From Anaeromyxobacter sp. (GTDB lineage Bacteria > Myxococcota > Myxococcia > Myxococcales > Anaeromyxobacteraceae): 64,000 bases of DNA. The notes under the pieces are model-generated. The model was not told the origin of the DNA, ran no database searches, and saw only the letters and a list, made by a program, of their open reading frames with translations. Of this stretch, positions 15,001 through 22,127 are shown one piece after another. The stretch spans positions 145,472 through 209,471 of the forward strand of contig JASGJN010000023.1 in assembly GCA_049840735.1 (NCBI GenBank), given 5' to 3'. The stretch's first letter is position 1, and every line of letters starts with the position of its first letter. The translations under genes were made by a program, and so were the position numbers.

Positions 15001-16405
15001 TCACCCGAGCCCGGCGGCGCGCATCCGCCGCCAGAGGGTGCTGCGGCTGACGCCCAGCGCCCGCGCCGTCTCCAGCCGGTTCCAGCGGTGGGCCTCCAGG
15101 GCTCGCGCCAGCGCCTCGCGGTCCTCCGCGGCGCTGGGCGGCGGGGCGGCGCGCGCGGCCGGCGCTTGGAGGGCCAGGGGCGGCGGAGAGGCCGGCTCGG
15201 GGCCGGCCAGCTCGGGCGGGAGGTCCTCCGGCTGGATGGTCTGCCCCTGCGCCACGGTGGCGGCGAACTCGAGCGCGTTCTCCAGCTCGCGCACGTTGCC
15301 CGGCCAGTCATGGGAGAGCAGGGCCCGCGCCGCCTCCGGTGAGAGCCGCAGCGCGCGGCCGGTGCGGGCGCAGGCCCGCGAGAGCAGCAGGCGGGCGATG
15401 GGCTCGATGTCCTCGCGCCGGGCCCGCAGCGGCGGCACCTCGATGGGGAAGACGCGCAGCCGGTAGTAGAGGTCCTCGCGGAAGCCGCCCTCGGCCACCG
15501 CCTTGCGCAGGTTCCTGTTGGTGGCGGCGATGATGCGCGCGTTGGTGCGGCGCGTGGTGCTGTCGCCGACGCGCTCGTAGGTGTGCTCCTGCAGGACGCG
15601 CAGCAGCTTCACCTGGAGGTGGAGCGGGACGTCCCCCACCTCGTCCAGGAAGAGCGTGCCGTCGGTGGCGGTCTCGAAGCGGCCGGCCCGGTCGCGGACC
15701 GCGCCGGTGAAGGCGCCGCGGACGTGGCCGAACAGCTCGCTCTCCAGCAGCTCGCCCGGCAGCGCGGCCGCGTTCACGGCCACGAAGGGGCCGCTCCGGC
15801 GCGGCGAGTGGGCGTGGATGATGCGCGCCAGCACCTCCTTGCCGGTCCCGCTCTCGCCGGTGATGAGCACCGTGGACTCGCTGTGCTGCAGCGGGTCGAT
15901 GAGCCGGAAGACGCGGGCCATGGCCTGGGAGCGCGCGATGAGCCCGAACCCGGCGGTGGGCCCGGCGGCCTCCTCGGTGGCCTCGTCGGCGGGGCGCATC
16001 ACCACCAGGTACTTCGCCGCGGGATCGCAGACGCCGAACTGGTCGTGGATGAGCGGCGCCGCCAGAGACCGACATGAGCCGGGTGGCCCCGCTCGGCGCC
16101 TGCAGCACTGCGCGCCACCCCTCGCGCTTCTCGCCGGCCTCGAGCGCCTGCCGCAGCGGCCCCTCGTCGCCGAACAGCTCGGCGCCGAGCAGGCCCTGGA
16201 CCGGCTCGCCGCGGGCGCGCACCGCGGCGCCCTGGCCCAGCAGCGCGTCGAGCATGTCCGACGCGTAGCGGACCCGGAACCCCTCGTCGAGCGCCATGCA
16301 GACCCGGCCCAGCGAGCCGAAGGCGACGTTCACCGCGGAGAAGGCCTTCTCCTGGTCGGAGCCCGGGCCGCAAGTGGTGGCGGGCTCGGCGAGCGGCTCG
16401 CGCAT
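15001..16405 (-). CDS. sigma54-dependent Fis-family activator with PAS-like N-terminus (frameshift at about 16065)
   Basis: [34 protein letters not shown] in 15001-16005; N-terminal part in ORF 15308..16405 joins by one indel. Confidence 0.85.
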
Positions 16406-16420
16406 GGCGTCTCAGCCTCC

Positions 16421-16460
16421 TGAAACATCCCGTTGCGGCATGGTGAAACATTTCGTCGCG
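16421..16460. promoter_or_regulatory. Tandem putative enhancer sites TGAAACAT-N2-CGT(T/C)GCG
   Basis: TGAAACATCCCGTTGCG (16421-16437) and TGAAACATTTCGTCGCG (16444-16460), 23-bp period, between the activator and the otr operon. Confidence 0.6.
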
Positions 16461-16512
16461 TAGCGCAACGTCTCCGGGCTGCAACCGCCTGGGATCACTG
16501 ACGCCGCTGTCC

Positions 16513-16528
16513 GGGCACGCGGCACGCA
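16513..16528 (+). promoter_or_regulatory. Putative sigma54 promoter of the otr operon
   Basis: GGGCACGCGGCACGCA, GG-N10-GC with GGCAC core. Confidence 0.55.
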
Positions 16529-20278: not shown

Positions 20279-20280
20279 TC

Positions 20281-20800
20281 ATGGCCAAGGAACCGCGTCC
20301 CTACCTGAACCCGTACCTCGCCGGCGCGCTGCTCGGCGTGGTGCTCTTCCTCAGCTTCTACGTGACCGGCGGCGGGCTCGGCGCCTCCTCCGCGCTCAGC
20401 CACGTCGAGGCGGCGGTGGTCGACCTGTTCGCCCCGGCGCACGTCGAATCGCACCGCCTACCTGGCCGAGATGGCCGGCGGCAGCCGCAACCCGTGGAAC
20501 CACCAAGGCGTCTGGATGCTGCTGGGCACCGTGCTGGGCGGAATCGCCTCCGGGGTCCTCAACCGGCGCTTCAGGCTGGAGTTCCGCAAGGGCCCGAACG
20601 TCAGCACCGGCACGCGGGTGGTCTTCGCGCTGCTGGGCGGCGCCATCATGGGCTACGGCGCGCGGCTGGCCCGCGGGTGCACTTCCGGCCAGGCGCTCTC
20701 CGGCGGCGCGGTGCTCTCGGTCGGCAGCTGGGCCTTCGCGCTGGCGGTCTTCGCCGGCGCCTACGCGCTGGCGTACACCGTCCGCCGGCTCTGGAACTAG
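20281..20800 (+). CDS. YeeE/YedE family sulfur-compound transporter subunit (frameshift at about 20447)
   Basis: PYLNPYLAG N-terminus, GARLARGCTSGQALSG conserved Cys motif; GAATC to GATC joins the halves. Confidence 0.82.
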
Positions 20801-20814
20801 GGAGGGCGATCACC

Positions 20815-22127
20815 ATGGCACCGTTCGCGCTCACCCCCGGCACCCTCGGCTACGTCCTCGCCTTCCTGGCCATCGGCCTCGGCTTCGGGTTCGTGCTGGA
20901 GCTGGCCGGCTTCGGCGACACCCGCAAGCTGGCGGCGCAGTTCTACTTCAAGGACCTCACCATCCTGAAGGTCATGTTCACCGGCATCGTGGTGGCCGCG
21001 GTGCTGCTCGCCGCCGCCACCTCGCTGGGCCTGCTCGACCTGGGCCGCGTCTGGATCAACCCCACCTACCTGTGGCCCGGGATCGTGGGCGGCCTGATCA
21101 TGGGCGTGGGGTTCATCCTTGGCGGCTCTGCCCCGGCACCTCGGTCGTGGCGGCCGCGACGCTCAGGCGTCGACGGCATGCTCTTCCTGCTCGGCGTGCT
21201 GGTGGGCGTGGGCGCGTCGGCGAGACGGTGGGCCGCTTCGAGCCCTTCTACCTCTCCTCGTACATGGGCCGCTTCACGCTGCCAGAGCTGTTGGGGCTGC
21301 CGCTGGGGGTCACGCTGGTGCTGGTGGTCGCCATGGCCCTGTTCATGTTCTGGGGCGGTGAGCTGCTCGAGCAGCGCCACGGCCAGGGCAGGCCCTGGGC
21401 GGAGATCCGCCTGGCGCCGGCCCGGTCCGGCAAGGCGCTGGCGGCGGGCGCGCTCCTCCTGGCCGCCGCGGCCGTGGCCGCAAACGGCCAGCCCACCCCG
21501 CAGCAGGTGTTCGCCCGGCTCGGCCCGGCCGCGCAGGCGGAGCTCGAGTCCCGCGCCGTGGTGGTGGATCCGGCGGAGGTGGTGGCGCTGCGGAAGGACC
21601 TGACGGTGCAGGTGGTGGTGCTCGACCTGCGGGACGAGCACCAGTTCCTCCTGTTCCACGTCGGCGGCGCGCGGCGGGTGGGGCCGGAGCAGCTCCTGGC
21701 CCCGGGCACCGTGAAGCAGCTCCTCGACCAGCCCGCCTCGACGGTGACCTTCCTGGTCGGCACCGGCGAGGCCCAGGCGCTGGAGGCGTGGAAGGGGCTC
21801 AAGGGGCTGGGCGTGCCCAACCTTTACGTGATCGAGGGCGGCATGAACGGCTGGCTGGAGCGGTACGCCGTGCCCACCTGCGTGGCGGCGCCGTCCACCG
21901 CGGCCGCCGCCGGCGCCTCCGACGTGCCCCGCTGGCAGTTCGCCCACGCGACCGGCGACCAGCTCCCCGCCTCCTGGCCCGAGCTGTCGCGCTCCGGCGC
22001 GTTCCGCACCCCCTGCGGCGAGCCCATCGCCCAGGGCGGCCACGAGGGGATCACCTGGCCCGAGCACGCCTTCACGAAGAAGGTGAAGCTGCAGACGAGG
22101 ACGGTGGTGAAGGGCGGGTGCGGGTGA
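20815..22127 (+). CDS. YeeE/YedE family subunit fused to rhodanese-like domain with C-terminal GGCG (several frameshifts at about 21125-21220)
   Basis: GFGFVLELAGFG, GG(F)CPGT Cys motif, VVLDLRDEHQFLLFHVGGA and LYVIEGGMNGW rhodanese motifs, ends KKVKLQTRTVVKGGCG*. Confidence 0.8.

Follow-up and report, generated by a model that had tools for sequence, protein, structure and literature searches.

The window, by which we mean the whole stretch of 64,000 nucleotides of Anaeromyxobacter sp. DNA that was analysed, contains a four-gene operon for an Otr-family octaheme cytochrome c, a heptaheme–cytochrome b fusion, the first half of a YeeE protein, and the second YeeE half fused to a rhodanese domain, in this order after open reading frame (ORF) and hidden Markov model (HMM) analysis (Table 1). 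Relatives also carry four ORFs, in which heptaheme and cytochrome b form one protein and YeeE half 2 and the rhodanese another. The operon exists at the locus as described in an initial annotation, which had called the genes tightly coupled: otr and gene 2 overlap in a GTGA (18022-18025), gene 2 and YeeE half 1 are 2 bp apart (20279-20280), and the two YeeE halves 14 bp (20801-20814). A second GTGA at 19425-19428 arises through a frameshift and was rejected as a gene boundary. All parts of the annotated composition find their family match (TIGR04315, PF01292, PF04143, PF00581), but the rhodanese is without a catalytic Cys, and the C-terminal thiol had been overlooked, as had the relationship between heptaheme and Otr, the cysteines of the activator's PAS domain, and the reuse of the cassette with Psr-type and second octaheme catalysts.

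Table 1. Features of the operon and its control region (window coordinates).
Feature	Position	Strand	Evidence and remarks
Sigma54 activator (PAS-like sensor, AAA+, helix-turn-helix)	15001..16405	-	PF00158, PF02954; frameshift near 16064
Two TGAAACAT copies, candidate activator sites	16421..16451	+	Copy search of the window; alignment with relatives
Predicted sigma54 -24/-12 promoter, GGCACG-N6-GCA	16514..16528	+	Positional conservation
Otr-family octaheme cytochrome c, intact	16592..18025	+	TIGR04315, 8 CxxCH, 1SP3
Heptaheme–cytochrome b fusion	18022..20278	+	7 CxxCH, PF01292; frameshifts near 19395-19431 and 20120
YeeE half 1 (PmpA-like, C-terminal half of TsuA)	20281..20800	+	PF04143; frameshift near 20445
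YeeE half 2 (PmpB-like), membrane helices, Cys-less rhodanese and Cys-tipped tail	20815..22127	+	PF04143, PF00581
Rhodanese active-site loop without Cys	21747..21776	+	10 loop columns of the alignment
Basic C-terminal tail, GGCG-stop; predicted periplasmic sulfur-carrier arm	22077..22127	+	Conserved terminal Cys

A rhodanese with its thiol on the tail

The last gene matches PF00581, and the model of its rhodanese domain (predicted local distance difference test, pLDDT, 91.8) has rhodanese-like proteins as top Foldseek matches. Compared with catalytic rhodaneses of the GlpE/Sud type, it has the fold and lacks the loop Cys: none of the 75 aligned sequences carries a Cys in the ten columns of the active-site loop, and 25 of the 75 contain no Cys at all besides the terminal one. 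That terminal Cys is one of only seven invariant columns in the 75-row alignment. In the window protein it lies in a basic tail ending GGCG-stop, and a Cys within the last three residues was found in each of the 91 operons in which the last ORF is closed within the locus (65 GGCG, 10 GLCS, 6 GLCG, 4 GSCG, 3 GGC, 2 GGCGG and 1 GGCGI). The top homologues, 120 of 120, likewise have GGCG as their last residues. With 4028 proteins at E <= 1e-30 and an Atlas cluster of 6489, the family is a large one; its named members nearest to the last gene carry the label Anaeromyxobacter sp. or Anaeromyxobacteraceae. The rhodanese (A2) profile also picks up Sud of Wolinella (1QXN, E 6e-6), and none of 75 family members matches the SoxY model.

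Where the rhodanese is a separate gene, it has a basic start followed by one membrane helix; under the positive-inside rule this fits an N-in/C-out topology, which would place the tail in the periplasm. The absent loop Cys and the conserved thiol at the C-terminal tip suggest sulfane sulfur on a carrier as the substrate, in place of the free oxyanion annotated initially. Complex predictions for Otr and the rhodanese-tail domain reached scores of 0.10 and 0.07 where the mark was 0.32, with no controls folded, and count neither for nor against contact.

Otr and its heptaheme paralogue

The product of otr has eight CxxCH motifs behind a hydrophobic leader at the N-terminus, scores 529 bits with TIGR04315 (curated cut-off 375) and matches the structure 1SP3 (E 1e-134). 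It is the sole Otr above the cut-off in its genome. Its Lys108 and Cys116 align with what we take to be Lys56 and Cys64 of 1SP3, in a numbering partly counted off the alignment, and the equivalents of Asn61 and Lys153 are also kept. The Lys ligand and the Cys at the heme 2 site are among the named features of Otr (bioRxiv 10.1101/2023.04.20.537704), and both are present in 100 of 100 YeeE-linked Otr proteins. The position of Asp150 is occupied by Gln in the window, and by Asp in 8 of the 100 YeeE-linked and 8 of 9 unlinked Otr proteins. In a tree of 139 loci plus the window, from which loci with partial Otr coverage had been removed, the Otr genes without YeeE fall outside the large clade that contains the window Otr. 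Five YeeE-less genes (L068-L071 and L073) form a distinct clade, each beside a sigma54 activator of a different type, with His154 replaced in four of the five. In another locus (L153:7870-10810), Otr and heptaheme are encoded by one ORF of 979 amino acids and 15 CxxCH motifs, downstream of which lie the YeeE pair and tail.

Gene 2 combines seven CxxCH motifs with a cytochrome b part (PF01292) whose best NCBIfam match is PhsC, below the cut-off; this homology supports the quinone-linked electron chain that had been proposed. It is a single ORF in 16 of 21 relative loci and split or truncated by a contig end in the remaining five. Heptaheme and cytochrome b as two genes were rejected for this clade, being fused in the relatives; in other families they are separate. 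The heptaheme profile aligns with that of Otr across four heme sites (probability 97.7%), with the N-terminal part unaligned, and the heptaheme model, although poor (pLDDT 62), has 1SP3 as its sole significant fold match, which is of supporting value only. The heptaheme is apparently an Otr paralogue that lacks the catalytic heme, the absent heme being read from motif spacing. Four His (19689, 19785, 20123 and 20165) do not vary among the 13 intact relatives and would be the heme ligands of a diheme cytochrome b of the HyaC/FdnI/PhsC type. Cytochromes b of the HyaC/FdnI/PhsC/CbcL type work with couples more negative than menaquinone, so that S–S chemistry would fit this class better than nitrite or tetrathionate, in either direction.

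A split YeeE protein

Both halves match PF04143 and, in an intact relative, cover profile positions 177-309 (half 1) and 4-189 (half 2). The RGCTSG of half 1 (20672-20689) aligns with GGCNIG in the C-terminal half of TsuA, making its Cys the equivalent of Cys293, while the GGFCPGT of half 2, invariant in 13 of 13 relatives, is a candidate equivalent of Cys91; a PDB search gave no meaningful match for half 2 and no direct alignment to 6LEO. Membership in the TsuA family proper is not indicated, as the chain is split and far below the NF041049 and NF052577 cut-offs. The tree of half 1 is poorly resolved at its base and yields no order of events. This pair is the only one in the genome of the window, in which no other YeeE was found.

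Predicted sigma54 control and a cysteine-bearing activator

The predicted promoter, first annotated as GG-N10-GC, lies at 16514-16527 and has an atypical -12 element. As this pattern occurs 35 times in the window (65 expected), a lone match is at chance level, and the case for a sigma54 promoter comes from position: of 31 loci that have the divergent activator alongside, 30 show GGCAY-N7-GC between the genes, compared with 3 of 23 close loci that lack this activator. The divergent activator itself (PF00158, read from 16405 to 15001) was also found as annotated, together with the tandem enhancer-like repeats, namely two TGAAACAT copies starting at 16421 and 16444. These are the only copies in the window, 23 bp apart (0.09 expected, for a pattern chosen post hoc), and relatives have related TGARAC-type repeats at similar positions when the alignment is inspected by eye; the copies are likely activator binding sites. 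A scan for sigma70 promoters found nothing.

The N-terminal domain of the activator is PAS-like by the Atlas features of an intact relative, and has Cys at two positions, one conserved in all 36 aligned homologues and the other in 35 of them. Such an activator may be a thiol-based sensor of sulfane sulfur. In other lineages ArsR-like genes stand upstream instead (by eye), one of them HMM-confirmed in a paralogous locus.

Distribution and reuse of the cassette

Of 36 genomes of the same genus, 15 contain the heptaheme gene, which was not found in any of 24 other genomes of the order; 14 of the 15 loci have the full four-gene order, and the contig of the remaining one ends early. Among 251 genomes of the phylum there are 43 Otr matches above the cut-off, 32 with a downstream YeeE pair, 9 without and 2 on contigs that are too short (5 matches belong to the same-genus operon, and the 38 others inspected divide into 27, 9 and 2). 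In the Chloroflexota, the phylum of an Anaerolineae record, Otr occurs in 12 of 201 sampled genomes and the operon in all 12. Metagenome loci (n = 80) show the pair in 49 cases and its absence in one, 30 being too short. Synteny around Otr homologues is thus conserved. The quinone module takes several forms (heptaheme–b, fused or split; nonaheme–b, placed last; Otr followed by a separate cytochrome b), across which the YeeE pair and the Cys tail are unchanged. The heptaheme and sigma54 control had both been counted as parts of the module; the former is present here and the latter is conserved together with the activator, but both are replaceable, and what stays constant is the set of Otr, YeeE pair and Cys tail.

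A genus-wide PF04143 search was positive in 25 of 27 genomes and revealed further YeeE pairs, and 16 regions (L244-L259) around such pairs and around octahemes below the cut-off were inspected. Four of them (L250, L252, L253, L254) have the order molybdenum enzyme, iron–sulfur protein, YeeE half 1, YeeE half 2–rhodanese ending in GGGGCSG, NrfD. The rhodanese is separate and ends in GGCG in L251 and in a second operon of L252, a region that carries two Psr-type operons in tandem. The molybdenum enzyme of L250 has 2VPW as its nearest structure (E 4e-215) and is below the PhsA cut-off. In eight further regions (L244-L248, L255, L257, L259) the YeeE pair precedes a divergent octaheme (L244:5303-7083, L247:5194-7019; 167 bits with TIGR04315 for L244) with Met-Lys at the position of Lys56-Lys57 of 1SP3. 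Between pair and octaheme, six of the eight have a short ORF ending GGC, and L247 one ending AGC; the neighbouring protein is about 100 amino acids long, bears a signal, has a GC end and matches no Pfam or NCBIfam family. The same PAS activator adjoins two of these loci. L249 contains a more distant YeeE pair without these partners, and L256 and L258 contain octahemes without the pair. As the pair and a terminal Cys are seen in Otr, Psr-type and divergent-octaheme loci, they travel with three different catalysts.

Proposed function and alternatives

On balance we consider it somewhat probable, from gene content, conservation, motifs, the loss of the rhodanese Cys, the tail and the reuse of the cassette, that the operon encodes a periplasm-facing, molybdenum-free analogue of polysulfide reductase which acts on arm-bound sulfane sulfur. 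The tail Cys would be loaded with sulfane sulfur from polysulfide, thiosulfate or the YeeE channel, in the form of a persulfide, polysulfide or thiosulfonate, and the tail, lying in the periplasm, would present it to Otr, with hand-over at the Lys-ligated heme and the neighbouring Cys. Electrons would run from quinol by way of two b hemes and then seven c hemes to Otr, which would cleave the S–S bond with these electrons of the quinone pool. Some of the sulfur may pass through the YeeE pair and signal to the PAS activator, much as SoxT1B signals to repressors (PMC11582611). Since the same cassette stands in Psr-type operons, Otr likely acts on sulfur held by the tail. The genome lends support: besides the sole YeeE pair it has two NrfA-like loci, each matched in pieces (G000:C4:126510-128008 and 176210-177706), and none of its six molybdenum-enzyme matches (26-36% identity; tblastn, assembly 94% complete) is a close PsrA. 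The dispensability of Otr for tetrathionate respiration in Shewanella ANA-3, as described in PMC12949373, also speaks for it.

Several points weigh against this reading. The local copy of the operon has seven frameshifts, and the position of TsuA Cys22 is apparently without Cys here (by eye). Purified Otr is reported to reduce nitrite, hydroxylamine and tetrathionate without a carrier (PMC12949373, PMC6449678), and Hyphomicrobium PmpAB is described as lying in an alcohol-oxidation cluster and not being regulated by sulfur (PMC11582611). The Lys56 and Cys64 equivalents, which we considered as a signature of arm use and rejected, are no mark of it, since 8 of the 9 YeeE-less Otr genes have them too. 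Otr and Psr versions coexist in several genomes of the genus (e.g. G021, G022, G020) and so are not simple substitutes. Finally, the loci counted above are kin and the sets overlap in ancestry, so that the counts overstate independence.

The same parts could run in reverse, with Otr oxidizing sulfide onto the arm Cys, electrons passing through the b hemes to menaquinone with charge separation, and the YeeE pair importing sulfane sulfur. The class of the b subunit, which is that of uptake hydrogenases and formate dehydrogenases, agrees with this, as do the SoxY-like end of the tail and the import of SoxY-bound sulfur by the YeeE-like SoxT1A (PMC11582611). We nevertheless regard it as unlikely: the b subunit is closest to PhsC among the NCBIfam models, the other partner of the cassette is Psr-like, and no cytoplasmic sulfur-oxidation genes were seen beside the inspected operons, although no genome-wide search for them was made.

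Another unlikely arrangement is that Otr reduces free tetrathionate, thiosulfate or sulfite while the YeeE pair and the tail separately take up the product for assimilation or signalling. Tetrathionate is reduced in vitro (PMC6449678), otr transcripts in sediment were up 36-fold on day 8 after tetrathionate addition (PMC8528874), an otr deletion slightly raised sulfite (PMC12949373), and TsuA is a thiosulfate transporter (PMC7449682). The Shewanella deletion is nevertheless described as without a tetrathionate phenotype (PMC12949373), and the Cys tail outlasts changes of the catalyst and even of the carrier fold, which suggests that it serves the catalyst.

That Otr is a nitrite or hydroxylamine reductase, with the sulfur genes as passengers or as protection against sulfide, is very improbable even though these are the most prevalent activities in vitro (PMC12949373) and a role in ammonification has been proposed by other authors (PMC6896113); the genome already has its NrfA-like loci, no nitrogen genes were seen next to the inspected operons, and the tight coupling to YeeE and tail holds across phyla. 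Of the sulfur-oxyanion view in the initial annotation, the sulfur rather than nitrogen context stands and tetrathionate is doubtful, given the ANA-3 result (PMC12949373). Equally improbable is the handling of selenium or another chalcogen (selenite, selenotrisulfide) by the same thiol relay: YedE-like proteins of one archaeon move selenium (cited in PMC11582611), but all 91 tails end with Cys and the match to the selenium YedE/FdhT model is far below the cut-off.

Integrity of this copy and neighbouring genes

The seven breaks, all single-base, hit the activator and three of the four operon genes (Table 1; in the last gene near 21127, 21168 and 21210) and spare otr. Counting only indels shared against at least two relatives, isolated frame-breaking indels number 4 in the 6.8 kb operon (0.58/kb) and 2 in the remaining 23.5 kb of the window; genome-wide, 17 were found in 110 kb against one complete relative. 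This excess over background counts against a uniform error rate and would favour a recent pseudogene. We think that rather unlikely, and local consensus error in the assembly probably explains the breaks: every one is a single-base indel, several lie at short homopolymer runs (by eye), the coding pieces contain no in-frame stop, and only 2 of 125, 0 of 12 and 0 of 76 near-invariant residues are altered. An unrelated downstream gene is likewise broken twice. This gene (22350-23490, plus strand; nucleotidyltransferase-like, by eye similar to UDP-sugar pyrophosphorylases) has its breaks near 22565 and 23230, which carry the frameshift-rich zone past the end of the operon.

On the other side, an intact ORF at 11587-14460 (plus strand; about 910-957 amino acids) has 9 CxxCH motifs, a lipoprotein-like N-terminus and carboxypeptidase-regulatory/PKD-like domains; it is a candidate extracellular multiheme protein and ends about 540 bp from the 3' end of the activator gene. 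A terminator-like hairpin at 14499-14528 is at chance level. Further genes of the window encode a protein of 1500 amino acids in which a PilZ domain precedes a very long stretch of coiled-coil-like repeats (6698-11200, plus strand), a CrcB fluoride channel (23904-24320, plus strand) and a MobA-like transferase (25340-25954, minus strand).

Implications

The physiological function of Otr has never been confirmed according to a 2026 paper (PMC12949373, section 4.1), and the operon names a concrete candidate substrate, namely sulfur on the terminal Cys of a partner. If so, an arm-bound substrate would explain the weak rates of Otr in vitro and the silent deletions, and otr genes in sediment and soil metagenomes would have to be re-read as part of sulfane-sulfur metabolism rather than of tetrathionate or nitrite reduction. 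A broader proposal, to which we give slightly less than even weight, is that the split YeeE channel and its tethered, Cys-tipped swinging arm form a general cassette for handling sulfane sulfur in the periplasm that accepts a molybdenum (Psr) or octaheme (Otr) catalyst, that most Otr enzymes act on protein-bound persulfide in a molybdenum-free sulfur respiration, and that the PAS domain is a new Cys-based sensor in sigma54 control.

No description of an Otr accompanied by a YeeE pair and by a rhodanese with a Cys tail was found in a full-text literature search, which covered few subscription papers and no supplements (the neighbourhood tables of PMC6449678 and PMC8528874 could bear on this), in line with the original remark that no characterized system has this composition. 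The nearest published cases are an Otr adjoining a cytochrome b (PMC4911364), an Otr that has cytochrome b and psr-like genes downstream of it (PMC6449678), and, in symbionts, a soxY-S3 located downstream of otr (PMC11237559).

Comparison with known systems

The window Otr resembles that of Shewanella oneidensis (1SP3; TIGR04315) in its eight hemes, its score above the cut-off and the kept equivalents of Lys56, Asn61, Cys64 and Lys153. It differs in the replacement of Asp150 by Gln and in sharing an operon with a quinone module, a YeeE pair and a Cys arm, the comparison being with the Shewanella enzyme itself. MmcA of Methanosarcina is a heptaheme relative of Otr that serves as a wire after loss of the catalytic heme (bioRxiv 10.1101/2023.04.20.537704), which the heptaheme of gene 2 would parallel. 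The latter differs in that it forms one protein with cytochrome b and has a catalytic Otr as its partner; it scores 18 bits with TIGR04314 (cut-off 250) and has no Rnf context.

The YeeE pair is similar to PmpA/PmpB and to TsuA/SoxT: as in PmpAB there are two half-proteins with one conserved Cys each (PMC11582611), and half 1 aligns with the C-terminal half of TsuA. Unlike in these systems, the C-terminal half comes first, half 2 has extra helices and a predicted periplasmic carrier, and the operon is linked to a respiratory enzyme and has no TsuB/TusA partner.

The tail shares with SoxY, which ends in a Gly-Gly-Cys motif, the placement of this motif at the extreme C-terminus and the design of a swinging arm, as in the SoxYZ carrier (PMC11582611). 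The fold that bears it here is that of a rhodanese, however, with no match to the SoxY model and no SoxZ seen in the operon.

Closest in layout are PsrABC (2VPW) and Wolinella Sud (1QXN), which also combine a periplasmic catalyst, a quinone anchor and a rhodanese-fold partner, and the same YeeE/tail cassette stands inside the Psr-type operons of this genus. Here a heme catalyst takes the place of molybdenum and a c-heme wire that of the iron–sulfur protein; a Pfam/NCBIfam scan of the operon found no molybdenum-bis(pyranopterin guanine dinucleotide) catalytic subunit or iron–sulfur subunit of the PsrABC/PhsABC kind. Unlike Sud, the window rhodanese is tethered to the membrane, with a loop devoid of Cys and the thiol on its tail. 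The operon thus likely works in the manner of Psr with a Sud- or SoxY-type carrier, while belonging to neither family.

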